Shown here in pieces: positions 19,683-55,342 of a DNA stretch of 64,000 nucleotides. The notes below the pieces were generated by a model that was not told the origin of the DNA, did not search any database, and worked only from the letters and a program-made list of their open reading frames with translations. Location: positions 26,147 to 90,146 of the forward strand of contig CAYLKE010000003.1 in NCBI GenBank assembly GCA_964384425.1. Direction: 5' to 3'. Source of the stretch: an uncultured Methanosarcinales archaeon. Its GTDB lineage: Archaea > Nanobdellota > Nanobdellia > Woesearchaeales > JAGLXL01. Made by a program: the position numbers and the translations under genes. Each line of letters starts with the position of its first letter. The first letter of the stretch is position 1.

Positions 19683-19705
19683 CTCTTTTATTAAATTTAC
19701 ATAAA

Positions 19706-19771: not shown

Positions 19772-19798
19772 TTTTTTTATTTTCTTTTATTTTTTAAA

Positions 19799-21423: not shown

Positions 21424-21435
21424 TTTATATTCTTA

Positions 21436-28700: not shown

Positions 28701-28826
28701 AAAGTAATTAGCAGTATTTTGGATTTAACTAATAAACAAAAAAAATGGTTTAATAAAACAATAAATTTTTATGGTTCTGCATGTGAAACAATAAGAAATC
28801 TAATAGAAAAAAATAAGAAAAAATAA
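25755..28826 (+). CDS. Membrane-anchored eukaryotic-like Ser/Thr protein kinase with long coiled-coil/helical C-terminal region
   Basis: GKQGAMGAM (Gly loop), VLIKV, HRDIKPDNF, DWG (DFG variant), GTPLYMSSE. Single TM at AVGAGAGALFAIALIAGGIGF, then EKE-rich coiled coil. Confidence 0.8.
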   Translation: MAPNINEIKKMLVDNFEGDNRKKVFKYLKSRKFDVDKIKPFRLGGKVIDLRPMIEKIDNSLENFETSENNTVDYNDNLTMQEDGANNSLGKTHEKRYTNNDFLHYEYKIEDSPNYVFLQNKVKDNTIRKSLIELEKNNPDRYHEMKFFGKQGAMGAMILAKDRKAYDSSVLIKVPKDISNSNSLIRFRKEAKATRIASEKATSNHLVDLHIKPGDAAYSVQKRLSDRSISGADYHLRAGNKGSHLKSKYSLDDIVSTFTNLVKQMDILSHEGLIHRDIKPDNFLVDPDFNTTDVLDWGLTKILDDDNTLEDNDVRDRAEAFKNSMTLHDVILDENGNYSSKSRTKDNKEVVLTMNAMGTPLYMSSEQADSERLDQVSHQTDIYSLGGVLYYMLTGTDPRPLSERGRKVSGLPGIMLMKYDGSFSENLDYRRIRKLKKGKALEGMIKKMMAFNLDERYQDYGEIVDDINKWKNDEDLSCYEYSKLDKFKFWVKNQTGKAVGAGAGALFAIALIAGGIGFMNYQSGVELKEAETRLELKEKEQEKQKSENEKKLALERAKKKGLENKLLSSFNEKIKNLFGRRKKKLNTINEIGFMNNNHNDNLTLIKYTLKDNDWANYITDEVFWKLTYAVRHENLKKQLPELLVNTKNEDMQKAILENCKYFDIIRYDKKDLEDEWKRKNMLLELRNNEGFNVIARYNYLDSLRKVKIKTLFNEIDKEHEIIGSKIEKNYQNAILEIANFLNASAKDRLTLDEILKIKNTSKVSYFVERMKERNKKDKKEWMEKYISKIEENKDYHELCLDISFDVYDLLLNFSRRSMINTEKFVKQINAGFNVLPAERKEKKIWEKIREYDKEVNKFDNNFIAKYKLNLLSSFGYNLTSDINSAKYLVTFHGKNTKENLNDFKKKLNFYLKKNTEFAKFNNAPDGEKLYSYFNNEKSKAKYFLLEFKYNIRKEDDMNERDKIYQKYENKINKLINEMKDYQKVISSILDLTNKQKKWFNKTINFYGSACETIRNLIEKNKKK

Positions 28827-28831
28827 AAATA

Positions 28832-29500
28832 TTAAATTAGGTTTTTAATAGATTTCAGCATAAAAGAAAATAAAGCCTCATCTTTATCAACAATAAATTT
28901 TTCTTGGGCTATTAATTTATCCCGATAGGTAGCATCAATTCTATAATAACCCTTAACAAGATCATTTATATAAAATTGGCCATCCACTTCCACTATATCT
29001 CCAAAATTTACATTAATTTTATTATATTTTTGTTTTAAGTCTGATGTATAATATAAAATATAATCTAAATCTTCATAATTATCTATTTCACTTTCAATAT
29101 TGAATAGTACACTACTTCCATAATTATAATGAGGAACATCTTGCCAATTATATTGATTAAAATCATAAAGAATATTATTAAAACCAAAATTATTAGCTCC
29201 GTTACTTTCTATACAATTTATTTCACAAGATTCAATACAATCTCTTATTTTTTTCTCAGGATCATCATTATATGTTGGGGTTGTGGTGGTTGGGTTATCA
29301 ACTAGTTCAAATTCTGGTTCTGAAGGGTCTTCATTATTTGGTGGAGAATTACTTCCTATATTAATAGAATCTTCATTTTCACTATCTACAGCTCCACCAA
29401 CACTATACCCAGTCATTCCTCCGAACATGAGTCCGACAAATGTAAACATAATAACAGAAAGTACTAAAGTAACAATGATTGCTTCATTTTTTTTATCCAT
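28832..29500 (-). CDS. Membrane-anchored hypothetical protein
   Basis: N-terminal TM (AIIVTLVLSVIMFTFVGLMFGG), then an acidic linker and a Cys-containing domain. Confidence 0.45.
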   Translation of the reverse strand: MDKKNEAIIVTLVLSVIMFTFVGLMFGGMTGYSVGGAVDSENEDSINIGSNSPPNNEDPSEPEFELVDNPTTTTPTYNDDPEKKIRDCIESCEINCIESNGANNFGFNNILYDFNQYNWQDVPHYNYGSSVLFNIESEIDNYEDLDYILYYTSDLKQKYNKINVNFGDIVEVDGQFYINDLVKGYYRIDATYRDKLIAQEKFIVDKDEALFSFMLKSIKNLI

Positions 29501-29660
29501 ATTAACACCTCTATTTAAACATTCTAATGAAATATTTATATAATAATAGAGTATATTATTGAAATAATATATTTAAAGGTTAGTATTAACTGATGAGTTA
29601 ATATTTATAAAGAAAACTTTATATATTTGTGTTTATTAATTAGTAGTGAAATGAAGTAAA

Positions 29661-30290
29661 ATGATTGAATTATATAAATATGTAAAAACTCGAAAAGCTC
29701 CCATTGATATAAAAAATGAACTAAGTCTATTAAAGAGTATTATGTTTCGCTATAAACGATTACATGAAAAATTATTACATATAAATATTCACCCAAAACA
29801 CATTTTTATTGAAAAACTAGAGAGATCTGAAGCTGAGATTATTAGTTTAAGACTATGTAATCTTCATGAACAAAATAAAAAAAAATATACTGAACTAAAT
29901 CAAGATAAAATTCCAGGGGTTATTCTTTATATGGCTCCAGAAAGAGCTAAAGCTGAGCCTGAAAAATTTAATATTACTACAGATACATATGCATTATCTG
30001 GCATAATTTATTATTTCTTTGCTGAAAAACATCCTGTTCCAGAAAAGTATATTAAAAACAAAAACACAATTGCTTTAATTAGTAAAATTAAATCTGGAAA
30101 AATAGTTGATGAAATTGATTTTGATCCAATTAGAAAATATCCACAAGGAATTGAATTAGAAAAAATTATCAGAAAAGGCATGAGATACGAACAAAAAGAT
30201 AGGTATCAAAGTTGTGATGAAATAATTGTAGAATTGAATAAGTATAATGATTTGGAAAAATACCAAAATAAAAAACAAAATGAATATTGA
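29661..30290 (+). CDS. Kinase C-lobe-only protein (pseudokinase or truncated kinase)
   Basis: LYMAPERA (APE) and D.YALSGIIYY (subdomain IX) are present. There is no Gly loop, VAIK or DFG, and the catalytic loop is degenerate (LHINIHPKHIFI). Confidence 0.55.
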   Translation: MIELYKYVKTRKAPIDIKNELSLLKSIMFRYKRLHEKLLHINIHPKHIFIEKLERSEAEIISLRLCNLHEQNKKKYTELNQDKIPGVILYMAPERAKAEPEKFNITTDTYALSGIIYYFFAEKHPVPEKYIKNKNTIALISKIKSGKIVDEIDFDPIRKYPQGIELEKIIRKGMRYEQKDRYQSCDEIIVELNKYNDLEKYQNKKQNEY

Positions 30291-31206
30291 ATATATTCTT
30301 AATGAATTTGAAAGATATAGGAGGAAAAAGTTTCTTATAGGTCAAGGAATAATAAAAGAAGAAAATGAAAAGGATAAAAAATTAAAAAATGTCACCAATT
30401 TAAATTCTGATGAAATTGAAGAAATAGAATATATTGTTGATTTGGATATTAATAATGATTTAATTAATGAAAAAGATGATCTATTTGATTATTATGAAAA
30501 ACAAGAACCAAAAAACACTATTGAATTGATTAAAGATGAAAGTGCATGGGATTTAGAAGAAAGTAATCCTTATGAGAATATTGATCAAATAAAAGAAAAA
30601 TATGAAATAAGAATTGACAAGTTCTTTGAAATGTGTAATAAAAATGATGCGCCAATAAGAGAAGAATTAGATCTCTATATTGAATGTATTAATGATTATT
30701 TGGTTGATGAGAAAATTATTGAAAATTTATTCAAGTATAAAGAATCAAATAATAAATTATTTTCAGACTATATTGATAAGATTATTAAATTATCAAATGA
30801 TAAAACAAAAGAAATTATTTCAGAAAAATTAAAATATACTAAAATAGACAAACAAATCCTTTCGTTACATAAATATTTTCTCAAAAAAAGTATGAATGAA
30901 ACCATGAAAGTTAATTCTCTTAAATCTTTATCTAGGATAATAGAATTAGATATCGATACATTTATTAGATTTTATAAAAAAACACTTCCCAAATTAGATG
31001 GTAGAGAAGCATACGAAGCATCATTGTTATTAGAGAAAATAGCTGAAAAAAATGAAGACAAAGCAATAAATTTGTTAGATTTGCATTTAGATTCTGATTT
31101 GTCTGTAACAGAGAGAGAATATAAACAAGCAGGAGTTATGAATTTCTATCTTAATTCAAAAAAAATATCAATGGAAGATAAGATAAATATGATTATAAAA
31201 ATATAG
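30280..31206 (+). CDS. Acidic helical protein; may be the N-terminal part of the downstream kinase gene
   Basis: ATG at 30280 overlaps the upstream stop. The downstream kinase frame is already open from 31182 and overlaps this ORF's end at an A5 run. Confidence 0.45.
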   Translation: MNIEYILNEFERYRRKKFLIGQGIIKEENEKDKKLKNVTNLNSDEIEEIEYIVDLDINNDLINEKDDLFDYYEKQEPKNTIELIKDESAWDLEESNPYENIDQIKEKYEIRIDKFFEMCNKNDAPIREELDLYIECINDYLVDEKIIENLFKYKESNNKLFSDYIDKIIKLSNDKTKEIISEKLKYTKIDKQILSLHKYFLKKSMNETMKVNSLKSLSRIIELDIDTFIRFYKKTLPKLDGREAYEASLLLEKIAEKNEDKAINLLDLHLDSDLSVTEREYKQAGVMNFYLNSKKISMEDKINMIIKI

Positions 31207-31343
31207 AATCAAGAAGAGTAATCATACATAAAAACCTATTTTCTAATTTACATATACTATTTAAAAATTATCAGAATGATTTTAGTTACATCATAAAAAA
31301 ATACTTTGGACATGTTAGTAAGACAGAACCAATAACACAATCA

Positions 31344-33086
31344 TTGATAAAATGTTTAGATTATGATATTGAAAGAGTTTTGAGTATTTTAGATTATAAA
31401 AATATAAGTTACACTCCATCAACTACAAATCTTATTAAAAAAGCCTATTTAATGAATTCAAAATTAACTGCAGAATATGTTAAGAAATATTTAAAAAAAG
31501 AAAATAAAGATAGCAAATATTTGTATCTTGCATTTAGGTTTATGGTAAAACACGATGCTGAAGTATTTGTAGATTTATACAAAAATATTACAAATAATAT
31601 TTTTGATAATCTATTTAATAATTCAAAAGACTATTCTGAAATAAGGCCCATAGTAAAAGCATTGAATTACTTAGTAAGAAAAAATATTAAATTATTTAAT
31701 GAATTGAGAGAAATGAGCAATACTTTTTTAGATTTTGAAATTGATGATAGCGACGATGAAAATTTATCTTTTAAAAAAATAATTAGTGTGTGTGAAAATT
31801 TTAAATATGCTTCTCAAAATTATGTTTTTAATTCTCCAACACAATTCTTAACTGATTATAATAATATAAATAATCAAATGAAAAAATTATTGTATATTAA
31901 TAAAATCAATGAAGAACAATTTAATACATTAAAGGAAGTGTATGTTCTCCCTGCATTAAGAAAATTAGCTAAAACCTTAGATTATGAAAAAATAAAACCC
32001 ATGGAAGAAATAGAATATAAATTTGTTAAAAAACTACTTAATGCGAATTTTATAAAGTGGGAAGGATGTGAAAGTGAAGAAGATATATTAAAAAAAATTA
32101 ATCCTTTATTTCATACAAGGAATAAATCTATACATTATAAAAAATATCATTCTATATTAGACGAGAAAAAGATTACGTCATTAAAAGAATTGCTTGAATG
32201 CGCTTCATATGATTTTGAAGGCATTTTCATAAAAAAATTAGGAGAAGGGTCTTTTGGTAATACTTATCTTGCCAAATTTATTGACAAAGGAGATAGGGCA
32301 GTTAAAATTATTAAAAAAAACAAAAACTTAGAAGAATCAATTATTTTGGATAAATTAAATCACAAGAACATTGTGAAGCTTTATCATTCGTCAGATAATG
32401 AGATTTCTAAATATGGAGAAGATTGTTCTTCTATATTTATGGAGTACATAGACGGAAAAGAACTAAGAGATATAATCGACAATAAAGAATTTAAAAAAGA
32501 AGATGCAAAGGAATGGACTTTAAACCTATTGGATGTTGTAAATTATCTTAATGAAAAAGAGATATACCACAGAGATATTAAACCAAGAAATATTAAAATA
32601 GATAGCAAGGGAATTTTAAAATTATTAGATTTTGGTGTTGCAACAACTAACATAGAAGAATATGAAGAAAAGTACAATAGAAAATATGGTGGAAGAAATA
32701 ATCTTTATTCTTTAAGTCTTATATCTTACGAATTATTTACAAGAGAATATCCTATTAAAAATGAAAAATTATTATCTACTAATTCCTTTAAAGATATGTT
32801 GAAAATATTAAAAGATGAGATGTTAGATAATGGAATCCTCAAAGATAAGTACAGATCTAAAATAAAAGAAAACATGCCTAAAGAGTTTCAAGAACCTATC
32901 ATTGCTGCTTTAGAATACAGACCACAAGAAGAATTAAATAAAGCTTTTTTTAATTTGAATGAAATAATCAAAATAAAAGAATTTGAAAGAAAAAGACCTA
33001 AAATAATCCAAACAATGAAAGATTGTGGATTTAATATTGATGGTATTACATATGATAAATATAAAAAAATAAAAAAATCATTTTAA
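31344..33086 (+). CDS. Ser/Thr protein kinase with N-terminal helical-repeat region
   Basis: GEGSFGNTY, AVKIIKK, HRDIKPRNIKID and LLDFGVA in the C-terminal 300 aa. The annotated start is TTG, and no ATG occurs in the open frame back to 31182. Confidence 0.75.
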   Translation: MIKCLDYDIERVLSILDYKNISYTPSTTNLIKKAYLMNSKLTAEYVKKYLKKENKDSKYLYLAFRFMVKHDAEVFVDLYKNITNNIFDNLFNNSKDYSEIRPIVKALNYLVRKNIKLFNELREMSNTFLDFEIDDSDDENLSFKKIISVCENFKYASQNYVFNSPTQFLTDYNNINNQMKKLLYINKINEEQFNTLKEVYVLPALRKLAKTLDYEKIKPMEEIEYKFVKKLLNANFIKWEGCESEEDILKKINPLFHTRNKSIHYKKYHSILDEKKITSLKELLECASYDFEGIFIKKLGEGSFGNTYLAKFIDKGDRAVKIIKKNKNLEESIILDKLNHKNIVKLYHSSDNEISKYGEDCSSIFMEYIDGKELRDIIDNKEFKKEDAKEWTLNLLDVVNYLNEKEIYHRDIKPRNIKIDSKGILKLLDFGVATTNIEEYEEKYNRKYGGRNNLYSLSLISYELFTREYPIKNEKLLSTNSFKDMLKILKDEMLDNGILKDKYRSKIKENMPKEFQEPIIAALEYRPQEELNKAFFNLNEIIKIKEFERKRPKIIQTMKDCGFNIDGITYDKYKKIKKSF

Positions 33087-36991: not shown

Positions 36992-37441
36992 ATGAAACCG
37001 AAAGAATTGAAAATTATCGCACACCTAAGACAAAACGCAAGAATGCCTTTAACAAAGATGAGCAGAAAAACCCATATTCCAGTATCAACATTATTTGACA
37101 ATTTAAAAGCAAAGGAAAAATCAATTATAAGAAAACATACTAGTCTTTTAAACTTCAGCAAATTAGGATATGATGCAAGAGCAAATATTGCATTAAAAGT
37201 AGACAGAGACGATAAAGAAAATCTATTAAAACAATTGAAGATGGCAAATGAAGTTAATTCTCTGTATAAAATAAACAATGGATTTGATTTTATGATAGAA
37301 GGGATATTCAAGAATGTTAGAGAAATGGAATCTTTTATAGAAAACTTAGAAAATAAATTCAAGATAACAGACAAGAAGTTTTTCTTTATCATAGAAGATC
37401 TGAAAAGAGAGGAATTCATGAGTAATGAGAACTTGGTTTAG
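36992..37441 (+). CDS. Lrp/AsnC-family regulator (copy B) with replaced C-terminus
   Basis: Near-identical to copy A up to ...REEF. It ends MSNENLV where copy A ends MGNPNLIN, because an inserted cassette starts at ~37417. Confidence 0.8.
   Translation: MKPKELKIIAHLRQNARMPLTKMSRKTHIPVSTLFDNLKAKEKSIIRKHTSLLNFSKLGYDARANIALKVDRDDKENLLKQLKMANEVNSLYKINNGFDFMIEGIFKNVREMESFIENLENKFKITDKKFFFIIEDLKREEFMSNENLV
37336..37420. repeat. 85-bp direct repeat, left copy (right copy 43873..43957)
   Basis: Base-by-base comparison shows the copies are identical except one C/T at 37417/43954. Confidence 0.9.
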
Positions 37442-37541
37442 GCATATAATGTCGGAAAGTTTACGAAATCTGAAACATATAATTAATATAGACTTTTCAT
37501 TATATTGTATTTTTATATATGTATTAAGACAATTCAGAAAA

Positions 37542-38408
37542 ATGAATAAAATTAAAGCAAATAAAATAAATCTAGCAATTATTTCTCCTTTTAATTATTT
37601 GGAACACTCTCTAAAAGGAGATATACACATGGCTTTAACTCATTTAGTTCTAAATGAAGATAATTTAGAATATGTTCAGTTTTATCGTCAATCGAATAAA
37701 TATAAAATATTAGATAATTCGGCATTTGAGCTAGAAGAATTAGGGGTTGGGTTAAAATCAAACCTAGTTTTAAAAGCAGCTGATATTATTTCAGCAGATG
37801 AAATAATTGCAACAGATGTACTTTACAAAGCAGAGGAAACAATTGAATCAACAATAAATTTCATAAATGATGTAAAAAATAAAAATAAACATTCAGATTA
37901 TAAAATTCAGGCTGTTGCTCAAGGATCATCAAAAAAAGAGATTTTATATTGTTTTCATGAATTAATGAAAATGAATAGTGTTAATGTGATTGGATTAAGC
38001 AAATTAGGAATTCCTGCTTCATATAAAGATCACATAATGGAAGGCGATGTCATGAGATCAAGAATTAGTTTCATTAACACAATAATTAATTCTAAAAAAT
38101 ACAAATTAATAAATTCACAACTTCAATTTAAAGATTATTCTCCAAAAAGCTTACATTTATTGGGGAGCGATAACAGGGGCTTTCAAGAATTATGGTACTA
38201 TAGGAATATTCCATTCATAAGATCCATGGATACTTCAATGCCTATTTGGTATGCATTAAATGGAAAATACATAAGTGAAAGTGAAAATTTTATTCCTGAA
38301 TTATTTAAAGAGAAAGTTGATTTTAAATATACAGAAGAAAATAAAAAATTGTCCTCAAAAAGAATTAAGAATAATTTAGAAAAACTAATGAAAAATTCAT
38401 GGAGGTAA
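37542..38408 (+). CDS. TGT-superfamily TIM-barrel protein, DpdA-like (putative base-exchange transglycosylase)
   Basis: Ordered motif matches to tRNA-guanine transglycosylase: LDNSAFE (cf. DSGGFQ), QAVAQGSS (cf. GIVQGG), NVIGLSKLG (cf. AIGGL), LHLLGSDN (cf. YLMGVG), SMDTSMP (cf. FDCVLP). No Zn site or PUA domain. Start set at the ATG at 37542. Confidence 0.5.
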   Translation: MNKIKANKINLAIISPFNYLEHSLKGDIHMALTHLVLNEDNLEYVQFYRQSNKYKILDNSAFELEELGVGLKSNLVLKAADIISADEIIATDVLYKAEETIESTINFINDVKNKNKHSDYKIQAVAQGSSKKEILYCFHELMKMNSVNVIGLSKLGIPASYKDHIMEGDVMRSRISFINTIINSKKYKLINSQLQFKDYSPKSLHLLGSDNRGFQELWYYRNIPFIRSMDTSMPIWYALNGKYISESENFIPELFKEKVDFKYTEENKKLSSKRIKNNLEKLMKNSWR

Positions 38409-38782
38409 AAATGAAAATCAAAAGATGGGTAACTATAAAAACATCATTTAATGGAATTCATAATTGGGAAAGATGCCCTATCAAAAGTGTAAATTTTCTT
38501 AAATATCCACATAGACATAAATTTTTAGTTAATTTAAGCATTCAAGTAAATGATGCTGATAGAGAAATTGAATTTTTTGTATTTCAAAAACAAATCAATG
38601 AAATAATAAAATCTTTATTTGAGAAACAAGAAAATGGTTGTTTGAATTTGGGATCAAGAAGTTGTGAACATGTATCTGATTTAATTTATAATAAAATAAG
38701 TGAAATTTATGGTAATGCAAATTGCCGAATAACTATTAGTGAGGATGGTGAAAATGAAGCAACCTGTGAATATGTCAATTGA
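38399..38782 (+). CDS. QueD/6-pyruvoyl-tetrahydropterin-synthase-like (T-fold) protein
   Basis: FNGIHNW..C...YPHRHKF.V.L (His triad plus Cys pattern), SCEH, and a C-terminal ...ATCEY comparable to the QueD C-terminus. Overlaps the upstream gene. Confidence 0.55.
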   Translation: MEVKMKIKRWVTIKTSFNGIHNWERCPIKSVNFLKYPHRHKFLVNLSIQVNDADREIEFFVFQKQINEIIKSLFEKQENGCLNLGSRSCEHVSDLIYNKISEIYGNANCRITISEDGENEATCEYVN

Positions 38783-39776
38783 AGAAAAATACATGAAGAT
38801 AGCTATTGAATTATCTAAAAAAGGTAATTTAATTCATAGTCCTTATGTTGGATGCGTTGTTGTTAAATCAGATAAAATTATTGGAAAGGGATTTTACGAA
38901 TATGAAGGAGCTCAACATGCTGAAGTAATGGCTTTTAAGAATATACCTTCGAATGATGCAAATAAATCTACAGTGTATGTAACTGTAGAACCATGTTCAG
39001 TTTATTCACGTACTCCTCCATGCACCAGACTTCTAATAGAAAAAGGTATTGAAAAAGTAGTTATGGGTATGTTAGATCCAAATCCATTGACTAAGGGAAG
39101 AAGTATTAAAAAATTTAAAGAAAATAACATTGACTTCCAAATTGGGATTTACGAACAGGAAATAATTAAATTAAATCAAAATTATATAAATACTGTATTA
39201 AACAACATAGATAATAAGGAGTGTTTTAAATATCGTGGTGTTCTTTCATTATGTGGGTTACCCGGATCAGGAAAAAGTCAAATAAGTAGAATCGTAAAAT
39301 CAATGTATGATATTGATGTTTTAGATGTTAGCTCAAAGTTACGAAGTATATCTATTGAACGATATGGCAATTCAAACAGAAACAATCTCATAAAAACTAG
39401 AGAAAAGATTATTAATTCTATGGGCAAAACAGGAGTTTTGGAATTAGCTTTATCAGAACATAAACTCAATTCTGATATTCTTTTAATCGATAGTGTTAGA
39501 ATTCTAAAAGACATAGAATTATTGTATAATAAATTTTCATCTTATTCTAAGACTATTGGGGTAATTGCTTCAAAGTATCAAAGATATCAAAGAATAAAAG
39601 AAAGAAGTAACAATAACATTTCCCATGAAGAGTTTATATCAAGAGATAAATGGGAGAAGAAAATAGGTGTCACAGAATGTATTGCTTCTTCAGATTATGT
39701 AATAAATAATTTGACTGATTTAAGCAACTTAAAAAAACAAATCCATGATTTGTTAGACCATTTTTATTTATTATAA
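38772..39776 (+). CDS. RibD-type cytidine/deoxycytidylate-deaminase-fold domain fused to a P-loop nucleotide kinase
   Basis: HAEVMAF...TVYVTVEPCSVYSRTPPC...MLDPNP (RibD deaminase signature), then GLPGSGKS (Walker A) and an R-rich lid (QRYQRIKER). The start is ambiguous (38739 GTG, or 38754 or 38772 ATG). Confidence 0.7.
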   Translation: MSIEEKYMKIAIELSKKGNLIHSPYVGCVVVKSDKIIGKGFYEYEGAQHAEVMAFKNIPSNDANKSTVYVTVEPCSVYSRTPPCTRLLIEKGIEKVVMGMLDPNPLTKGRSIKKFKENNIDFQIGIYEQEIIKLNQNYINTVLNNIDNKECFKYRGVLSLCGLPGSGKSQISRIVKSMYDIDVLDVSSKLRSISIERYGNSNRNNLIKTREKIINSMGKTGVLELALSEHKLNSDILLIDSVRILKDIELLYNKFSSYSKTIGVIASKYQRYQRIKERSNNNISHEEFISRDKWEKKIGVTECIASSDYVINNLTDLSNLKKQIHDLLDHFYLL

Positions 39777-40558
39777 TTAGAACAGGAAGAATTAATTTTG
39801 CAAGAAGAACATAATTTTTTACTACAACCATATGAACCTGTAATCCACATAGCCCTATCTAAATCAAGAATATTAATATCATTATCTTTGCAGTAATCAG
39901 TATAGAATTTCTGTAGCTGAGATGCATAAAAATATTTGTCTTCTCGTGAATTTGTTTCTAAAGCAATTTTTGTCCACAAACTAATATTTACATCATGAGA
40001 ATCAATAGGCATCATCAATCCATCTAAACTTTTTGGACTTATAAGTTTTTGTTCTATCATGAAAAAGACGAGTAAATTTGATATTTTTGGACCAAACCCA
40101 TAAAAGTCAGATAAATTATTTAAGATATTCTTCACATCACCCTTAAAGACATTTTTTACATTCGATTGGTAATTATTAACTAATAATTGTGAATTATTTA
40201 ACCATCTTTTAATAGCTTGATTAGGAAATCTAGGTTTTAAATATTTTCTTAGATCTGATGATAATGTTTCTTCTTCATATTTAATAATTTGTTCTGCATC
40301 AAATAATTTGGGATTTTCATTATACATAGCAATCCCTCTTTCAATCAAAGAACTCATTTTAGTCCCATAATTAATGGAATTCATATAAAATAAAAATTTA
40401 AAGTGTTCTTCACTACCTGTTTTTATTGATGAAGGAATATTTTGATCAGGAGTGATAATATTCTCAGTAAATATGCCTGTTTTGTTATAAAATGAACTCA
40501 TTAATTCATTAATGACTTTTTTACTACGAGACAAATTAAATTTTAATTTATATTTCAT
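39764..40558 (-). CDS. HhH-GPD superfamily DNA glycosylase with C-terminal 4-Cys (Fe-S loop-like) motif
   Basis: HhH FYGFGPKISNLL, catalytic-Asp region MPIDSHD, and C-terminal GCSKKLCSSCKINSSC (C-x5-C-x2-C-x5-C, close to the EndoIII/MutY cluster spacing). Confidence 0.65.
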   Translation of the reverse strand: MKYKLKFNLSRSKKVINELMSSFYNKTGIFTENIITPDQNIPSSIKTGSEEHFKFLFYMNSINYGTKMSSLIERGIAMYNENPKLFDAEQIIKYEEETLSSDLRKYLKPRFPNQAIKRWLNNSQLLVNNYQSNVKNVFKGDVKNILNNLSDFYGFGPKISNLLVFFMIEQKLISPKSLDGLMMPIDSHDVNISLWTKIALETNSREDKYFYASQLQKFYTDYCKDNDINILDLDRAMWITGSYGCSKKLCSSCKINSSCSNYNK

Positions 40559-41465
40559 ATTTTTTTAGTATGTGGTCTATTTTCTTTATTGCGTAAGATG
40601 TTGTTTTTATAAATCTATCAGTTTTAATAAGGTTGTTAATTTTTTCATGATTCAAATTAAAATCATACCCTACTTGACTAATAGATTCACTAGCAATAAA
40701 AGTAGCAAATTTTAATGAACTGATTAAATTATTAGTTAAATTATAATTATATATAAAACTAGTTGCAAAGAAGTCTCCCGCACCAGTAGAGTCAATTTCT
40801 TTATTTGGATACGAACTAGTATGGTAAATTTTATTATTTTTAAATAATAAAGAACCTTCTTTATCTAATGTAACAAATAACATCAAATCTTTGTTACTTT
40901 TTGTTAATTGATTTATAGTACTTATTGTATTTTGATTTTCTAATTCTTTAATTTCACTCTTGTTAACAAATAAATAATTAACATTTTTAGAGATAGATAA
41001 TAATCTTTTAAGATTCCGAGCATAATCTCCTTGTGGGGAGAATGCCAAAGGAATATTTTCTCTCTTTGCTTTATTGGAAACATTTTTATGAAGTGAGTAA
41101 TTTGAAGTACATAAATAAATGAATTCAGAGTTCCAGAATTCATAAGGTAATCTCTCTAATTTCATTAATTTTTGTGATTCTCCAGATATCAATACTTTCC
41201 TTTCGTCTTCACAACGATAATCCAAAGTTATTCTTTTTGTTTTGACATTTTCTTTATTAATCTTCAAATTAATATTTTTCTTTTTAAGAAAATCAATAAA
41301 TTTAGGAGAGAAATCGTTGCCTATTGTAGTATATAATGAAACATCTGATTTAAATTGTGTAAAACTCAGAGATGCATAAATTGCAGAACTTCCCATTAAA
41401 GTAATTTCTTTATCATTATAAATTAAATTATCTATAGAGATTGAACCAAGTACAGAATATTTCAT
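40548..41465 (-). CDS. PfkB-family (ribokinase-like) sugar/nucleoside kinase
   Basis: C-terminal signature DSTGAGDFFATSFIY. Length and N-terminal beta-strand pattern are typical of the family. Confidence 0.75.
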   Translation of the reverse strand: MKYSVLGSISIDNLIYNDKEITLMGSSAIYASLSFTQFKSDVSLYTTIGNDFSPKFIDFLKKKNINLKINKENVKTKRITLDYRCEDERKVLISGESQKLMKLERLPYEFWNSEFIYLCTSNYSLHKNVSNKAKRENIPLAFSPQGDYARNLKRLLSISKNVNYLFVNKSEIKELENQNTISTINQLTKSNKDLMLFVTLDKEGSLLFKNNKIYHTSSYPNKEIDSTGAGDFFATSFIYNYNLTNNLISSLKFATFIASESISQVGYDFNLNHEKINNLIKTDRFIKTTSYAIKKIDHILKKYEI

Positions 41466-42442
41466 TTTTCTAGATCTATTATGTCTCCAATATTTGGACC
41501 TTTTGTTAAAAGAGCCACCTTAACATTCGTTTGTTCTTCTATAAAGTTAATGGTTTTTTGAACATTTCTATCTATTTCATTGTTCATTGAAATATAATCT
41601 GTGAAAGTTAATGCTATTTTAGTTGCACCATTTACTATAGAAGCATTTTTAATCAAATCAACATCCAGACCCCCAACTCTCCGTAATCTTTTAGTTATCG
41701 ATGAATATTCTTTTATATTACTATTTGTTTCTTCTTGATACAATCTTCCTGGTCCAACTCTGCTTTCTCTACATCTTACAACTAAATAAACCTCTTTAAC
41801 TCTTTGAGGAGATAAGCCTAGACTAGACAGAGCCTCTGAAGTTGTTGTATCTCTACTAGTAACGTAAGGATAATCTCCATGATATAAAGATAATCCAAAT
41901 CCTTGACTCCCTTCGACAATCAAAGAATCTCCATTATTTAATCTTGAATTTATCTCTTTTACTGTATCTATTTGATATTCACTTAATATTTTAATATCTT
42001 TCATCAATTTAGCTTTTCTTAAAATTCTATCAGAATATGCTTCTCCAACACCTGATAAAGTTGATCCAACTTCTTTTTCAAGAAATTTATTTTGTTTTTC
42101 TCTAAGAATATATTCTTCTTCAATAACTGCACTAAATTTATCGACTTTGACTCTATTTGGGTTTAATTTAAACATATTGATTTCAGTAAGTAATGTCTGG
42201 GGGTGAATTAACATTCCTCTAGATAAATACAATGTTGTGTTATTGTTTGTAACTCCTGCAGGAATATGTCTTAATACTATTTTTTCATTGTTGTAATGAA
42301 TAGTATGTCCTGAATTATATGATCCTACTCTTGCCGCCATATTAAAATTATCTCTATTACATAAATAAGATGAAATTCGCCCTTTTCCTTCATTACCATA
42401 TTGAGATCCAATAACTAGAGTAACTTCATTTTTATAATCCAT
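41462..42442 (-). CDS. Short adenylosuccinate-synthetase-family enzyme (PurA/PurZ-like) with Asp->Asn in the P-loop
   Basis: GSQYGNEGKGR (cf. PurA GTQWGDEGKGK), NSGHT (cf. NAGHT), VEGSQG, YPYVTS, SRVGPG, KRLRRVGGLD. 326 aa, like short archaeal PurA. Confidence 0.7.
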   Translation of the reverse strand: MDYKNEVTLVIGSQYGNEGKGRISSYLCNRDNFNMAARVGSYNSGHTIHYNNEKIVLRHIPAGVTNNNTTLYLSRGMLIHPQTLLTEINMFKLNPNRVKVDKFSAVIEEEYILREKQNKFLEKEVGSTLSGVGEAYSDRILRKAKLMKDIKILSEYQIDTVKEINSRLNNGDSLIVEGSQGFGLSLYHGDYPYVTSRDTTTSEALSSLGLSPQRVKEVYLVVRCRESRVGPGRLYQEETNSNIKEYSSITKRLRRVGGLDVDLIKNASIVNGATKIALTFTDYISMNNEIDRNVQKTINFIEEQTNVKVALLTKGPNIGDIIDLEK

Positions 42443-42791
42443 TTTGAATCATCCCCTTATCAGTATCAAAACTTAACATATTAATATCATCAATTGGTAT
42501 CCACATTAATTCTTCTGCTTCATTTGTTTTAATTTCTCCATCCCATTGAGATATCAAGTAATAATTTATGTTCAGGACATTTCTTGTTTTAGTTCCTAAG
42601 AATTTAATCTCTTTTGCTTTAATATTTAATTCTTCTTTAATTTCTCTTGTGACTGCATTTTCATGCGATTCATTAGCCTCAACTTTTCCACCAGGAATCA
42701 TGATTGTATCTGGATCTAATAATTTATTTTTCTTTCTTTTTTCAACAAGAATCATATTTTCTTTTTTTAATATAAAAGATACAATTTCCAT
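42432..42791 (-). CDS. Nudix hydrolase (MutT-like)
   Basis: Nudix box GKVEANESHENAVTREIKEELNI fits G-x5-E-x7-REUxEE. Confidence 0.8.
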   Translation of the reverse strand: MEIVSFILKKENMILVEKRKKNKLLDPDTIMIPGGKVEANESHENAVTREIKEELNIKAKEIKFLGTKTRNVLNINYYLISQWDGEIKTNEAEELMWIPIDDINMLSFDTDKGMIQNGL

Positions 42792-42954
42792 AAAGTTAGC
42801 AAATTTAAGTAATATATAAAGATTATCTTAATTTAATAGTATAATGTCGGAAATAATCTGACAGTAAGTTTAATAAATAAGTTTATCACTTAGATGATAT
42901 AAAAAAATAAATCAAAAAGATGCTAAAAAATATGCATTACAATAATTTAAGAAA

Positions 42955-43344
42955 ATGCCTGAATTAGAAAAGCAGTGGAATATTATTCATTCAGAATCAA
43001 TAATAGAAATATTGAACGTTATTGCTACTAACAAAAATATGAATTTAGAAAAATTCTTTTCTTTGGCATGGCTACATGATATTGGAAAAATTAAATCAGA
43101 AAAAAACCATGCAGAAATAAGTTTAGAAATGTTAAAAGAAGAATTTGAATTGGATGAAATTGATAAAGATTGTATTTTAAATCATGGATCCTCATCAGAA
43201 CCAAAGACCAAAGAAGGAGAAATATTTCGTTATGCTGATGGATTATCTTTATTTACTAATGAATCGATTAAGTTTAGATTCTATGCAGAGGCTAAAGAAG
43301 GATTAGATTTTGAACAAATCAAAGAAAAACTCAAAAAGATATAA
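42955..43344 (+). CDS. Small HD-domain phosphohydrolase
   Basis: LAWLHDIGK (HD dyad) with downstream H (NHAE, LNHG) and D (YADG) residues. 129 aa. Confidence 0.6.
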   Translation: MPELEKQWNIIHSESIIEILNVIATNKNMNLEKFFSLAWLHDIGKIKSEKNHAEISLEMLKEEFELDEIDKDCILNHGSSSEPKTKEGEIFRYADGLSLFTNESIKFRFYAEAKEGLDFEQIKEKLKKI

Positions 43345-43421
43345 AAAGTATAAGATAAAATATTAAGATTTGAAAACAACATTATATTTTCAAAGAAACT
43401 ACATCAGCTAAAAATACAAAA

Positions 43422-43871
43422 ATGAAAAACTTAACTAAATTCCTAAAATATGCAAAAAAGAAAGCATATGCTTCGAAATTAACTTTTCCTAAGAAGACAA
43501 TTTTTAATGGTAAACGACATATAATTAAAAAAGATGATTTGATTTATATTGATACTTATTATGGAGATAAAACATTTTCAGGTAAGGAAGTTATATTAAT
43601 TAAAAAATCTCCTGTTTGGTCTATGGTTTATTATGGAGGTATTAAAGATAATGACTTAAATAAAAAAGATATTTACAAATTCTTAAAATATTGTTTAAGA
43701 GATATTCCAGATACATTTCCAATAAGAGGGAAAAACAATATTGTTAAAAATAGATTCAAATATGTAAATAAATGGAAAGGGGATTTAAAATCATTTGAAG
43801 GAAACGAAAGGATTTATTTTAAAGAAAAATTAGTGTATTCTTTGAGATATATTGGTGGAAAAATCAATTAA
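43422..43871 (+). CDS. Hypothetical protein (DUF5680-like by recollection)
   Basis: The pattern Y.D.Y.G...F.G.E.V......P.W.M.Y.GG is recalled from DUF5680-type proteins. The assignment is unverified. Confidence 0.3.
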   Translation: MKNLTKFLKYAKKKAYASKLTFPKKTIFNGKRHIIKKDDLIYIDTYYGDKTFSGKEVILIKKSPVWSMVYYGGIKDNDLNKKDIYKFLKYCLRDIPDTFPIRGKNNIVKNRFKYVNKWKGDLKSFEGNERIYFKEKLVYSLRYIGGKIN

Positions 43872-43872
43872 A

Positions 43873-43981
43873 TATAGAAAACTTAGAAAATAAATTCAAG
43901 ATAACAGACAAGAAGTTTTTCTTTATCATAGAAGATCTGAAAAGAGAGGAATTTATGGGGAATCCTAATCTAATTAATTAA
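43873..43981 (+). pseudogene. Orphan 3' fragment of the Lrp/AsnC gene
   Basis: Its 5' part is identical to copy B (37336..37416). Its 3' part and downstream 17 nt are identical to copy A (34553..34599). It encodes ...EEFMGNPNLIN*. Confidence 0.85.
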
Positions 43982-44002
43982 TTTTTTATTTTGTTTTTGT
44001 TT

Positions 44003-44107
44003 ATTATGATTTATAAATTCCTCGCTAGTACTTGTCCAGTGTGTCCAGTGGAATCATTCCGAATAATTGTTAGAAGTGTTTTTAAAAAATATTTCTTAAG
44101 AAAAGTT
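44003..44107. repeat. Junction repeat A, copy 1
   Basis: attatgatttataaattcctcgctagtacttgtccagtgtgtccagtggaa + hairpin ggaat-c-attcc + ..ttgttagaagtgtttttaaaaaatatttcttaagaaaagtt, ending at a start codon (44108). Confidence 0.85.
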
Positions 44108-44761
44108 ATGGAAAACCGAAAACTATTTAAATGTTTAAATAATATAAACAATTGTTTAAAAATGTTAAACATAATAAATAAAGGTTATAAAAAGATATTG
44201 AAGTTATTTTATGATAATAGAAAGAGTTTTCATCTTAGGGAAATTGCTAAAAAAACTTCTCTTAATGAAAATAGTGCATATCGTTTTCTTAATGTTTTAG
44301 AAAAAGAAAACATATTAAAATCAAATAAAAAAGCTAATCTTAAGCTTTTTTCATTAAATAAAAACAATAAAGTTTATTCTTTGTTGTCTTGTTTTGATAT
44401 TGAAAGATATGAAAAACTTCCTTCTATAAAAAAACAAGCAATAGGATATTTTTTAGAAAAATTAGATAAAAAACCATTTATAGTGATACTATTTGGTTCA
44501 ACAGCAAAAGAAACTTATAGAAAAGATTCAGATATTGATTTGTTTTTAATAGTCAATGAAAAGATAAATACTAGAAAAGCAAAAAATTACACTGATTCAC
44601 AAACAGCACAAATAATAAATGATTTTCAAATAAGTTTTAATGATTTTAAAAAAGATCTTAAAATGAAATCAGAAAAAGTTCTGCAATCAGCTCTTGAAAC
44701 AGGATATCCCATATTAAATCATATTGAGTTTTATAGGTGTGTTGAAGATGAAGAAATATGA
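44108..44761 (+). CDS. wHTH + MNT nucleotidyltransferase (pair 2)
   Basis: LFGSTAKETYRKDSDIDLFLI. Start moved to the ATG at 44108, because the track's N-terminal extension translates repeat A. Confidence 0.75.
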   Translation: MENRKLFKCLNNINNCLKMLNIINKGYKKILKLFYDNRKSFHLREIAKKTSLNENSAYRFLNVLEKENILKSNKKANLKLFSLNKNNKVYSLLSCFDIERYEKLPSIKKQAIGYFLEKLDKKPFIVILFGSTAKETYRKDSDIDLFLIVNEKINTRKAKNYTDSQTAQIINDFQISFNDFKKDLKMKSEKVLQSALETGYPILNHIEFYRCVEDEEI

Positions 44762-45649: not shown

Positions 45650-45684
45650 TTTTCCCCTCCTTTTTAATAATAATATTTTTAGAA

Positions 45685-45843
45685 ATTATGATTTATAAAT
45701 TCCTCGCTAGTACTTGTCCAGTGTGTCCAGTGGAAAGATACTAAAAACTCAAAAGTTTTGGTATCTTAAAAAATCTTTGATTTTTGTAAGATTTCCGATT
45801 AATTGTTAGAATCACTTTTAAAAGAATTTTCTTAAGAAAAGTT
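45685..45843. repeat. Junction repeat A, copy 2 (with 53-nt insertion 45738..45790 in the hairpin loop)
   Basis: First 50 nt are identical to copy 1. The insertion is flanked by aagat/aagat and contains a 12-bp stem (agatactaaaac/gttttggtatct, one U-G pair). The repeat runs into the radC start. Confidence 0.85.
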
Positions 45844-46500
45844 ATGAAAATAAAAGAGATGTGTGTAAGGGAAAGACCAAGAGAGAGGTTGAAGAAAGAT
45901 GGAGTTAGTTGTTTGAGTAATTCTGAGTTGTTAGGTGTTGTTTTAGGCAATGGAAGTAGAAAAGAGAATGTTGTTGATATGTGTAATAGATTGATTTCTA
46001 ATATTGGAATGAAGAAGTTGAGTAAAAGTAGTTTGAAAGAGTTGCAAGAGTTTCATGGAGTTGGTTTTTGTAAAGCTTGTCAGATACTTGCTTTGTTTGA
46101 GTTTTGTAAACGGGTGGAAGTTATTAAGAATGAAAGAGTTATTATTAAAAGTGCTAAAGATGTTTTTAATTATATTTATCCAAAAGTTAAAGATTTAGAT
46201 AAAGAACATTTTATTGTTTTGATGTTAGACACAAGAAATGGAATTATTAAAGATGAAGTTGTATCAGTGGGAACGTTAAATAGTTCTTTAATTCATCCTC
46301 GTGAAGTGTTTAAGTCAGCTATAAAAGAAAGTGCAAATGCATTGATCCTCGTTCACAACCATCCATCAGGTGATTGTAGTCCATCAGATGAAGATATTGA
46401 TGTTACAAAGAAGTTGATAAAAGTTGGAGAGGTTGTTGGAATAAAAGTACTAGATCATGTAATTGTTGGAGGAGGGAAATGGTGGAGTTGGGATGGATGA
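45844..46500 (+). CDS. radC: RadC-like JAB-domain protein
   Basis: N-terminal RERPRERL...LSNSELLGVVLG, HhH-like region, JAMM motif HNHPSG...PS..D. Confidence 0.85.
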   Translation: MKIKEMCVRERPRERLKKDGVSCLSNSELLGVVLGNGSRKENVVDMCNRLISNIGMKKLSKSSLKELQEFHGVGFCKACQILALFEFCKRVEVIKNERVIIKSAKDVFNYIYPKVKDLDKEHFIVLMLDTRNGIIKDEVVSVGTLNSSLIHPREVFKSAIKESANALILVHNHPSGDCSPSDEDIDVTKKLIKVGEVVGIKVLDHVIVGGGKWWSWDG

Positions 46501-47786: not shown

Positions 47787-48639
47787 TTAGTATAATTTAT
47801 TCAATATTGTTTTTGTGTTTTTATTAAGTTTTGAGAAAGCAAACCATTTCTTACCAAGATCCTTTAATGATGCACCTATATGATAAAGTTCTTTGTTATC
47901 TATTATCATAAATCTATCATGAGAATCTTTAAATTGTTTTATAGTTATTTTTGAATATTGGTTATTATGTTTTTCTAAATCTAGTTTTAGTTGTTTTGTT
48001 AATTCTTTAGTGTATATAATTACCTTAACATTTTTTTCTTTTTGTAAATAATGTTAGAACAGAATCATCAATGTAATTATCTATTAATATTATTTCTTTT
48101 TTAGCTGAACGAATTAAGTCTGAAATGAAAATATGTGCATCAAATACTTGTCCATTAAAGAATACTCCTTTTGATGGTTTGATATCTTTGCTTTCAATCG
48201 CTTTGAAAACTTTTTCAAACTTTTGATCATGTTCTAGTTGTTTATGTTCTATTTTATCTAATCTTTGATAAGTTAAAAGATTAGATGAAATCATCTTTTT
48301 TATATGAACAAAAGCACGAATTATAAGAATATTGACACTAATAGCTGTTTCACTATTTAAAACACCTGAAAGCATTGCAACACCATGTTCTGTAAATGCG
48401 TAAGGAAAACTAGTTGAATGTTTCAAGTTTTTGAACCGGTCACAATTTGTGACCAGTTTGTTTTTTTCTTTTTCTGATAATTGAAACATGAAATCGTTTG
48501 GAAATCTTATAAGGTTTCTTTTAACAGCCTGATTTAACACTTTAGTGCTTACTCCATATAACTCAGCTAAATCCCCATCTAACATAACTTGTTTTCCTCT
48601 AATTGTTTGGATTTTATTTTTAATAGTTATTTCATTCAT
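47787..48639 (-). pseudogene. ORF6N-domain DNA-binding protein gene, frameshifted in a poly-A run near 48025..48035
   Basis: The track ORF 48025..48639 ends ...LFTKRKKC*. A shifted frame continues KNVKVIIYTKELTKQLKLDLEKHNNQYSKITIKQFKDSHDRFMIIDNKELYHIGASLKDLGKKWFAFSK...*, the expected C-terminal half. Confidence 0.6.
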
Positions 48640-48660
48640 ATAACTTAAAGTAGAAAATTA

Positions 48661-48815
48661 ATTTATAAATTTCTCGCTAGTGGTTGTCCAGTGTGTCCAG
48701 TGGAAAGGTTTCCGATTAGTTGTTAGAAGTGCTTTTAAAAAATATTTTTTTAATTAGTTATATGAAGATAAAAGAGATGTGTGTAAGGGAGAGGCCTAGA
48801 GAGAGGTTGAGGAAA
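48661..48815. repeat. Junction repeat A, copy 3, including an 18-codon radC 5' fragment (48762..48815)
   Basis: atttataaatttctcgctagtggttgtccagtgtgtccagtggaaaggtttccgattagttgttagaagtg..., then atgaagataaaagagatgtgtgtaagggagaggcctagagagaggttgaggaaa (MKIKEMCVRERPRERLRK). Homology to radC stops there. Confidence 0.85.
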
Positions 48816-49890: not shown

Positions 49891-49964
49891 AAGAATTCCT
49901 GATGGTTGTTAGAAGTGTTTTTAAAAGAATTTTCTTAAGAAAAATCATGAAGATAAAAGATATG
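49891..49964. repeat. Junction repeat A, partial copy 4, with radC start remnant (ATG 49947)
   Basis: gaattcctgatggttgttagaagtgtttttaaaagaattttcttaagaaaaatcatgaagataaaagatatg. It lacks the ctcgctagt...ccagtgg half. Confidence 0.75.
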
Positions 49965-49972
49965 AATGAGAC

Positions 49973-50473
49973 TTAGATTTTTTGGAATTTCTCTCTTATA
50001 TTCTTTATTTGTTGAATATTTAAGTTGTTAGCATAAGCTAATATTTTAATATTAAATTCTTTTGCAGTTTTAATTCTTTCAGAACATTTTTCTTTATTTA
50101 TTGGTTCAGAATCAGTTACAGGTACATAATATTGATTATCTATTCTATCTGTTTTAAATTCTGAAAAAATGTCATGTAATTCATCTAATTCAAATATTTT
50201 TTTTATCAACTTTACTGCTGCTGAATGATTTTCACATTTTATTCCACATTTAAAAAATAATGACAATACAGAATTATATATTGAATAGTATGCTTCTGAA
50301 ACTGAATTTTCATAAATCCCTGCACTATATGCCAATTCAGCAACTTTTATACATTTATCACTTTTTATTAAATAAGATTTTGATATTTCTTCAGAAGGTT
50401 CAACTAATTCTAAAACTTCTTTTCTTTTTAATTTAGTCAAAAAACTTAATTTTTTCATAATATTTTTCTCCAC
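49973..50473 (-). CDS. HEPN-domain protein (pair 5)
   Basis: EAYYSIYNSVLSL...CENH...DRIDNQYY. Confidence 0.6.
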   Translation of the reverse strand: MEKNIMKKLSFLTKLKRKEVLELVEPSEEISKSYLIKSDKCIKVAELAYSAGIYENSVSEAYYSIYNSVLSLFFKCGIKCENHSAAVKLIKKIFELDELHDIFSEFKTDRIDNQYYVPVTDSEPINKEKCSERIKTAKEFNIKILAYANNLNIQQIKNIREKFQKI

Positions 50474-55341: not shown

Positions 55342-55342
55342 T

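Follow-up and report, generated by a model that had tools for sequence, protein, structure and literature searches.

The DNA analysed here is a 64-kb stretch of an archaeal genome (contig CAYLKE010000003.1, hereafter the window), and its subject is a cassette of nine genes, g1–g9, set between direct repeats (Table 1). Eight intact open reading frames (ORFs), g1–g8, span positions 37542–43344, and the ninth gene, g9, also lies inside the repeat bracket. Genes g1–g3 form a plus-strand run (37542–39776) in which stops and starts overlap. Genes g7, g6, g5 and g4, in that order, form an overlapping minus-strand run (42791–39764) that is convergent on g3, and g8 and g9 then follow on the plus strand. 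The first two genes belong to the DpdA3 and DpdL families, and the others encode predicted enzymes of nucleotide and DNA metabolism together with a DUF5680 protein. A first-pass annotation had placed the products of g1–g8 in eight families that act on nucleotides, nucleobases or DNA, and each of these assignments was confirmed by profiles or structure. The window contains the archaeal chromosome markers aCPSF1 (TIGR03675, 846 bits) and archaeal non-discriminating aspartyl-tRNA synthetase (AspRS). Its G+C content is ~25%, and that of the cassette (~26%) is near that of the flanks.

The boundaries of the cassette are defined by an Lrp/AsnC-type gene that is present twice (34130 and 36992). Upstream of g1, the second of these departs from the other copies at ~37420. 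The sequence from 43874 matches the last 84 nucleotides (nt) of the Lrp-type gene and goes on to match what follows the first copy. Because the flanking 84-nt repeat and the sequence after g9 continue the Lrp-type gene, positions 37421–43873 (~6.45 kb) are an insertion into the 3′ end of that gene. The last codons of the copy upstream of g1 are unlike those of its paralogue because the cassette starts there. A public short-read assembly of the same sequence is interrupted at the 84-nt repeats, giving a 6516-bp contig. The repeat bracket proposed in the first-pass annotation is therefore real and sharper than claimed, a near-identical direct repeat enclosing the nine genes. No recombinase is encoded within the cassette. 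The toxin–antitoxin island in which the annotation had placed the genes is likewise borne out, with HEPN/MNT pairs, RadC paralogues with repeated leaders, an ORF6N protein, a Schlafen-group-3 helicase and MADS6/PglW-like kinases around the insertion. Homologues of FolE, QueC, QueE and PurB, which the annotation had listed as missing, are indeed not found within the window, and neither is a QueD homologue; a 7-deazaguanine precursor must therefore be supplied by other parts of the genome or from the cell's surroundings.

The DpdA3 and DpdL families were named from two proteins of Cellulophaga phage phiST, CGPG_00065 (DpdA3, a distant TGT/DpdA homologue) and CGPG_00067 (DpdL), and deoxyguanosine (dG) in the DNA of this phage is wholly replaced by 7-deaza-dG (PMC10516641; Cui, Hutinet et al. 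2023). The g1 protein contains 288 residues counted from a homologue-supported start codon, in a frame that is open from 37425. It matches CGPG_00065 with tblastn E = 3e-9 over 82% of the protein and phmmer E = 7.8e-17, aligns with it throughout, and has D58, N59, D92, Q127, H205, S228 and D230 as common invariants. All invariant columns of the DpdA3 alignment seeded with g1 are present. The AlphaFold2 (AF2) model of g1 has a predicted local distance difference test score (pLDDT) of 92.9, and the top 50 Foldseek matches to this model in the PDB are all TGT, ArcTGT, QTRT1 or DpdA structures (including 7ui4), each with a probability of 1.00. The best viral structure match, in BFVD, is phiST M4SLA5 (E = 2.6e-16, TM-score 0.77 normalised to the target). 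There is no Pfam match to g1, and hence none to the Pfam TGT family. It matches phrog_20335, and the PHROG matches of both g1 and g2 are families of unknown function; single-sequence searches of PDB sequences with g1, g2 and g8 gave nothing useful. Homology and the model together indicate that g1 belongs to the DpdA3 family, and it would put a 7-deazaguanine base in place of guanine.

DpdL is a paralogue of QueD, carries the signature LxxxHRHxF and has been proposed to decarboxylate 7-carboxy-7-deazaguanine (CDG) (PMC10516641). The signature, which replaces the QueD motif CxxxHGH, is fitted by FLKYPHRHKF in g2 (L34, H38, R39, H40 and F42). All 12 invariant columns of a 24-sequence DpdL alignment, seeded with g2 and including the phiST protein, are present in g2. 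The match to phiST CGPG_00067 has a phmmer E-value of 7e-11, and tblastn also finds this gene, which is adjacent to that for phiST DpdA3. No Pfam family matches g2, and its assignment as a T-fold protein is profile-based: the DpdL family profile aligns with phage QueD (hhalign probability 87%, E = 3.7e-6) and with the PTPS homologue PH0634 (PDB 2dj6; E = 3.7e-5). The single-sequence AF2 model of g2 (pLDDT 48) was unusable and was left out of the structure search. The start of g2 overlaps the end of g1 by 10 nt. We assign g2 to the DpdL family, as a predicted CDG decarboxylase. Both families that g1 and g2 represent are markers of phages in which dG is fully replaced by 7-deazaguanine-type bases.

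Table 1. Features of the cassette, with the predicted type of each gene product and the evidence for it
Feature	Position	Strand	Evidence or context
Left 84-nt repeat copy	37337..37420	+	3′ part of Lrp/AsnC-type gene 36992–37441
g1, DpdA3-family TGT-fold transglycosylase	37542..38408	+	Homology to phiST CGPG_00065, fold match
g2, DpdL-family QueD-like T-fold protein	38399..38782	+	Signature, family alignment, profile matches
g3, fusion of RibD-type deaminase of the CDA fold and UPF0200/AdkA-like P-loop kinase	38739..39776	+	Pfam/NCBIfam, PDB
g4, EndoIII/AGOG-type HhH-GPD glycosylase	39764..40558	-	Family profile, conserved Lys/Asp/Cys
g5, PfkB-family kinase (ribokinase/nucleoside-kinase type), TGAGD motif	40548..41465	-	Pfam/NCBIfam
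g6, short archaeal-type PurA homologue, Asn for Asp13	41462..42442	-	Adenylsucc_synt family, motif comparison
g7, small MutT-like Nudix hydrolase	42432..42791	-	Nudix box intact save last Gly
g8, 129-residue HD-domain phosphohydrolase	42955..43344	+	PF01966, E = 2.7e-10
g9, DUF5680 protein, last gene inside the bracket	43422..43871	+	DUF5680 match
Right 84-nt repeat copy	43874..43957	+	Followed by sequence like that downstream of the paralogous Lrp gene at 34.5 kb

Genome, viral and metagenome collections were scanned with DpdA3 alignments, and ~250 loci were fetched for comparison; the best 80 matches per scan were examined, out of >500 viral and 320 metagenomic matches. A DpdL gene adjoins DpdA3 in most of these loci, and the two genes form a constant unit in viral and cellular genomes alike. 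Viral DpdA3–DpdL loci usually have FolE or FolE2, QueD and QueE alongside, whereas g1 has no such neighbours in the window. Clustering of the neighbours in the first 97 loci gave a DCD/dUTPase-like protein in 73, a deoxynucleoside monophosphate (dNMP) kinase in 13 and QueC in 11, and in phiST a MazG-like gene adjoins DpdL. The commonest neighbours of the pair are nucleotide kinases and nucleoside triphosphate (NTP) pyrophosphatases, and in cells an iron–sulphur (Fe–S) HhH-GPD glycosylase recurs too.

Partners of these kinds recur most clearly at the nearest DpdA3 relative of g1 and in a conserved ten-gene cluster, present in Longispora sp. NPDC051575 (locus L104, 4724–11736) with the order FolE, QueD, Tmk-like, QueE, Tmk-like, flavin adenine dinucleotide (FAD) protein (PF21688), HhH-GPD, DpdA3 and DpdL, and a Nudix gene on the opposite strand. 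The cluster is found again in at least 12 soil metagenome contigs, loci L123, L130–L142 and L190 also have it, and DpdA3–DpdL–kinase–HhH-GPD clusters are found in actinobacteria including Actinoplanes, Streptomyces, Micromonospora and Frankia. The locus of the nearest DpdA3 relative of g1 (40% identity) reads DpdA3, DpdL, Tmk-like, FAD, PfkB and HhH-GPD; its kinase, FAD protein and HhH-GPD protein are orthologous to those of Longispora. The PfkB protein of the Actinoplanes DpdA3 locus weakly matches g5. Our cassette shares with the actinobacterial cluster the DpdA3–DpdL pair, a P-loop kinase, an Fe–S HhH-GPD protein with the Lys and Asp residues and a Nudix protein, and one cluster member has a PfkB kinase as well. 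It differs in that its kinase, glycosylase and Nudix protein come from other subfamilies, in that it has neither the FAD protein nor the precursor genes, and in the addition of a deaminase, a PurA homologue and an HD protein.

The g4 protein has no Pfam match on its own, and a word-indexed homologue search returned no relative, but an exhaustive search found 361 homologues in the representative library. A profile built from 50 of these relatives matches EndoIII (9nzc, E = 4e-9), AGOG, ROS1 and MutY. Among the 50 family members, 16 match Pfam AGOG and 2 weakly match Pfam Q_salvage. The characteristic motifs of g4 are GFGPK, which contains the helix–hairpin–helix lysine K158, PIDSHD, which contains the catalytic-type aspartate D186, and the cysteine pattern C-x4-C-x2-C-x5-C. 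Throughout the family alignment K158 and D186 do not vary and the Cys positions vary little or not at all; the Asp aligns with the VDTH motif of EndoIII. Since the Lys, the Asp and all four Cys residues are kept, g4 is predicted to be an EndoIII-type Fe–S HhH-GPD enzyme with the residues of a bifunctional glycosylase/lyase. A scan of viral contigs for the g4 family found none.

The best solved relative of g6 is the short PurA of Pyrococcus horikoshii (221 bits). The g6 protein scores below the NCBIfam cut-offs for both the archaeal PurA equivalog (NF003295, 325.6 versus 368 bits) and PurZ (NF038379, 165.8 versus 300 bits). Its P-loop reads GNEGKG where that of PurA reads GDEGKG, placing Asn at the position of the catalytic Asp13. 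According to a 2026 paper, Asp13 is 99% conserved in PurA, is replaced by Ser in 100% of phage PurZ proteins, and is Ser or Gly in a few archaeal PurZ-related sequences. In the best 120 homologues of g6, all at ≤43–44% identity, the majority have G or S at position 13 and the rest have D; N is found solely in g6. In a rough neighbour-joining tree g6 forms a long branch at the base of Asp-type archaeal PurA, between that clade and the G/S proteins, and as this placement is ambiguous, we relied instead on shared motifs. With the G/S proteins g6 shares TKRLRR, STLSG and NSGHT, where Asp-type PurA has TGR(R/K)RR, STGTG and NAGHT/S. The equivalents of His41, Lys16, Gln224 and Arg303/305 are retained, as are the other catalytic and aspartate-binding residues. 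Identity is 30–32% to the aligned PurZ and PurZ0 and 35% to a third phage homologue. A housekeeping PurA was considered for g6 and rejected in view of Asn13 and of the score below the cut-off.

The closest homologues of g6, with Gly or Ser for Asp13, are in loci L101 (816–5096) and L103 (6362–10707, Candidatus Manganitrophus). Such G/S homologues occur in a conserved bacterial four-gene cluster that encodes a PF13482 RNase_H_2-like, nuclease-like protein, the PurA-like protein, a DCD-like protein and a dNK/Tmk-like kinase. The set appears to be the equivalent, in cells, of a PurZ-type nucleotide pathway.

A second association of DpdA3–DpdL with a PurA homologue of this kind is seen in locus L192 (3130–13005; ENA ERZ23486238 scaffold_4049), where the homologue has the P-loop GSEGKG. 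L192 also encodes IMPDH/GMP-reductase-like, NDT-like and DERA-like proteins; these and the PurA homologue lie between QueD and QueE/FolE2. The layout resembles the logic of the toyocamycin pathway, and the product may be an adenine-type 7-deazapurine. A viral scan for the L192 PurA homologue found nothing, and one seeded on the L192-type DpdA3 found no close relative.

The remaining genes fall into well-populated families. In g3, the deaminase half (residues ~13–153, with HAE and PC..C motifs) matches TIGR00326 (132 bits) and RibD 3zpc (113 bits), and the kinase half (~168–341) is closest to the archaeal UPF0200/AdkA-like protein SSO1041. Anti-phage dCTP deaminases (NF041025; PADLOC dCTPase) have a kinase-like domain to which the C-terminal half of g3 (39242–39776) is also homologous, but there the domain stands before a dCMP-type deaminase rather than after a RibD-type one. 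The best match overall to g7 is PADLOC PDC-S07, a candidate defence Nudix. For g8, the sole match among hits at E-values up to 0.01 is the generic Pfam HD family, and a sequence search of the PDB found no match. No PADLOC model matches g1, g2, g4, g5, g6 or g9, and g3, g7 and g8 match only models of unrelated systems.

Among the described systems close to the cassette is that of phiST, to whose DpdA3 and DpdL g1 and g2 are homologous by sequence (and g1 also by structure), and in which the two genes are likewise adjacent, with nucleotide hydrolase genes nearby (PMC10516641). It differs from phiST in its archaeal chromosomal location, in the absence of FolE, QueD and QueE beside the pair, in the order DpdA3 then DpdL, and in the added deaminase–kinase fusion, EndoIII-like glycosylase, PfkB kinase, Asn13 PurA homologue, Nudix and HD proteins. 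The bacterial Dpd system similarly joins a TGT-fold enzyme linked to 7-deazaguanine in DNA with a genomic island of a cellular organism, but DpdB, DpdC and DpdD–K are absent here, the neighbours lack the ATPases and helicases of that set, and the presence of DpdL implies 7-deazaguanine rather than preQ0 or ADG. With no PADLOC or Pfam match, g1 is not a bacterial-type DpdA. Phage PurZ/MazZ/DatZ clusters, and PurZ0/DutZ/DmtZ clusters, share with the cassette a PurA homologue without Asp13, adjoining NTP pyrophosphatase-type and HD enzymes, and the logic of a nucleotide pool. The link to PurZ/MazZ/DatZ drawn in the first-pass annotation is suggestive only: g6 is below the PurZ cut-off and has Asn in place of Ser, the pyrophosphatase is a Nudix protein and not MazG or Dut, and there is no MazG-type enzyme or DpoZ polymerase. 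The cluster partners of PurZ are DatZ, a YfbR-type HD enzyme, and MazZ, DUF550 or DutZ; among hits at E-values up to 0.01, g8 matches the generic HD family and shows no sign of the DatZ type. The tubercidin and toyocamycin clusters of Streptomyces resemble the cassette in arranging decarboxylation, removal of the 2-amino group, PurA-type amination at C6, a Nudix protein and a carbohydrate-family kinase around a 7-deazaguanine core (PMC6112128). The enzymes are nevertheless not orthologous (T-fold versus UbiD, hydrolytic RibD-type versus GMP reductase, TGT-fold versus phosphoribosyl pyrophosphate (PRPP) transferase), and GTP cyclohydrolase I, QueD, QueE, PRPP transferase, GMP reductase and an exporter are not found in the window.

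Taken together, we interpret the insertion as a putative mobile 7-deazapurine nucleotide/DNA-modification module built on the DpdA3–DpdL pair, with a probability of about 0.5, and favour an accessory rather than a housekeeping role. Beyond the family identity of g1 and g2 and the commonest neighbours of the pair, we infer the pathway as follows. A 7-substituted 7-deazaguanine, either CDG or a scavenged nucleoside, would be supplied from outside the cassette, the nucleoside being phosphorylated by the PfkB kinase g5. DpdL would trim the base to 7-deazaguanine, and DpdA3 would swap guanine for it, either in DNA or on a deoxynucleotide before replication. The Nudix protein g7 may convert (d)GTP to (d)GMP, the HD enzyme g8 may clear competing nucleotides, and the kinase half of g3 may re-phosphorylate the product. 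The RibD-like half of g3 and the Asp13-less g6 might rework the 2-amino-6-oxo ring toward an adenine-type 7-deazapurine, with a lyase encoded elsewhere needed. This is the weakest step, because RibD-type deaminases are hydrolytic and the lyase is not at hand. The EndoIII-like glycosylase g4 would edit or police the DNA. The net effect would be DNA that is poorly read by the nucleases or defence proteins of competitors, or a self/non-self mark within the defence island.

Exchange in DNA after replication is the order favoured by the authors who described DpdA3 and DpdL (PMC10516641). In our view, exchange on a deoxynucleotide ahead of replication, with re-phosphorylation and incorporation by a polymerase to follow, is about as likely, because kinases and dUTPase, MazG or Nudix enzymes recur beside DpdA3–DpdL, because replacement is complete in DpdA3 phages, and because DmtZ, an enzyme that transfers the deoxyribose phosphate of dAMP to a free base (2026 paper), sets a recent precedent.

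Several observations weigh against a module of this kind. No detectable orthologue of g3, g4, g7, g8 or g9 stands beside any other fetched DpdA3, and so the link of these genes to the pair rests on family-level analogy and on adjacency in one locus. Of the ~250 loci, only two, that of the window and L192, combine DpdA3 with a PurA homologue. The window contains no source of CDG or preQ0 and no PurB. RibD-type deaminases are hydrolytic and leave a 2-oxo product, unlike the reductive deamination of the toyocamycin and tubercidin routes, and the RibD domain of g3 is near genuine RibD (~113 bits), so that an unrelated role is possible. The activities of DpdL and DpdA3 themselves have never been reconstituted, and their authors' tests in Escherichia coli failed (PMC10516641).

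The lack of orthologues for five of the nine genes beside any other DpdA3 makes one alternative the strongest of the rivals, namely that only g1 and g2 form a 7-deazaguanine module and that g3–g9 are unrelated to it, serving purine salvage in a host-dependent archaeon or representing separate nucleotide-depleting defence genes. The resemblance of the g3 kinase domain to that of anti-phage dCTP deaminases, the defence-type best match of g7, the closeness of the g3 deaminase domain to genuine RibD, and the distribution of the genes over two convergent strands and a third unit all fit such a chance assembly. Yet a single insertion between repeats holds all nine genes, with reading frames that overlap within each run, Asn13 speaks against a housekeeping PurA, and a non-Asp PurA homologue appears again in L192. 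Kinases and HhH-GPD proteins, moreover, recur beside DpdA3–DpdL in independent lineages despite the lack of orthology, with PfkB and Nudix proteins in fewer loci. These recurrences are mostly at the level of family, and the g4-family profile only weakly touches the HhH-GPD proteins of other loci. The same enzyme kinds thus go with DpdA3–DpdL in separate lineages but were recruited from different subfamilies, which we regard as real, though indirect, evidence of a functional linkage. We consider a chance assembly rather unlikely.

If the linkage holds, the target might still be something other than DNA. The product made or recycled by the cassette could be a free nucleoside or nucleotide of a 7-deazapurine, as in the tubercidin and toyocamycin pathways, with DpdA3 building the scaffold by base exchange, the deaminase and PurA homologue converting a guanine-type into an adenine-type ring, the Nudix and HD proteins setting the phosphorylation state, and the glycosylase guarding the producer's DNA against misincorporated analogue. 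The tub cluster offers parallels in the TubF decarboxylase, TubD, the TubG Nudix hydrolase, the TubH carbohydrate kinase and the PurA/PurB steps; actinobacteria carry DpdA3–DpdL–kinase–HhH-GPD clusters; L192 has GMPR-like and PurA-like proteins; and kinases would be pointless for a purely post-replicative base swap in DNA. We nonetheless judge this alternative unlikely, as experiments tie DpdA3 and DpdL to modified phage DNA and to nothing else (PMC10516641), the cassette has neither an exporter nor a PRPP transferase, the window has no precursor pathway, and the Fe–S EndoIII-type enzyme and the defence-island site fit a DNA role. Far less probable again is a tRNA modification of the archaeosine/queuosine salvage type, in which the TGT-fold protein would insert scavenged 7-deazaguanine into tRNA, with PfkB and a Qng1-like HhH-GPD protein freeing the base. 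The TGT fold of g1, the weak Q_salvage matches of two g4 relatives and the absence of de novo genes from the window are compatible with it, but g1 has no Pfam TGT match and lies in a clade tied to phage DNA, g4 has the Fe–S and HhH features of DNA glycosylases, including the Lys and Asp, and the gene set is on a mobile insertion in a defence island.

Within the preferred reading of a DNA-modification module, a more specific outcome is that the deaminase and the Asn13 PurA homologue turn a 7-deazaguanine nucleotide into an adenine-type 7-deazapurine deoxynucleotide that then enters DNA. We consider this quite improbable. Candidate products would be 7-deazaadenine, 2-amino-7-deazaadenine or, if the deaminase is hydrolytic, a 2-oxo form resembling isoguanine. 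The rings of the 7-deazaadenosine antibiotics are reworked by ToyE/ToyG and TubD/PurA (PMC6112128).

The first-pass annotation had taken the combination of genes to be undescribed. This does not hold for g1–g2, since the core pair has been known from phages, as DpdA3 and DpdL, since 2023 (PMC10516641), but stands for the remaining set, of which the searchable literature has no description. Conservation of the gene neighbourhood in relatives, which the annotation had named as a test, proved partial: it is found for g1–g2 in most loci, at family level for the kinase and HhH-GPD proteins and in fewer loci for PfkB and Nudix, and once for the non-Asp PurA homologue, whereas neither the RibD-like deaminase domain nor the HD protein recurs in the other fetched DpdA3 loci. 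As far as the searchable literature shows, the new elements are the presence of DpdA3–DpdL in an archaeal chromosome, this accessory set, the association with a PurA homologue lacking Asp13, and the actinobacterial cluster that joins DpdA3–DpdL to kinases, an FAD protein, HhH-GPD and Nudix.

The surrounding island has features of its own. Leader repeats of 58–82 nt that include the motif TTGTCCAGTGTGTCCAGTGGAA occur at 43994–44114, 45676–45850, 48646–48815 and 49896–50000, before an MNT gene, RadC paralogues and other island genes, which suggests a shared promoter or recombination site. The Schlafen-group-3 helicase-domain protein (53461–55449; PF09848, 351 bits) and the ORF6N-domain protein (48025–48639) belong to the same island; proteins with these domains are typical of defence and mobile regions. 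Just upstream of the toxin–antitoxin and cassette region, three ORFs with Ser/Thr kinase domains (25755–33086) have matches that include the defence kinases MADS6 and BREX PglW. We rejected the region as a provirus, as structural and integrase genes were not found. Farther upstream, at 16210–22620, a full AspRS (16210–17625) and a shorter AspRS paralogue (21436–22620) flank two radical S-adenosylmethionine (SAM)/SPASM maturase-like genes and a creatininase/MftE-like gene, an arrangement that looks like a peptide-modification cluster. The radical-SAM ORF at 19799–20668 was considered as QueE, to which it has a weak match, but it is a generic SPASM-type enzyme. Between tRNA-Ser and tRNA-Asn lies a third tRNA (6192–6293; Rfam 57.6 bits, not detected by ARAGORN), whose length of ~102 nt indicates that it probably contains an intron.

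DpdA3 and DpdL accompany the complete replacement of guanine, yet no other part of 7-deazaguanine DNA biology is so little understood, and the locus described here offers testable partners for these two enzymes of still unproven chemistry. Their recurrent partners, namely kinases, NTP pyrophosphatases and an Fe–S glycosylase, provide a testable alternative in which the base is put in place on a nucleotide, ahead of replication. A PurA homologue without the catalytic Asp is tied to 7-deazapurine genes in two independent loci, which hints at adenine-type 7-deazapurines beyond the known antibiotics. If the adenine-type route were true, the archaeon would carry a purine that is not so far known from natural DNA, synthesised as a nucleotide ahead of replication and not by base exchange after it.

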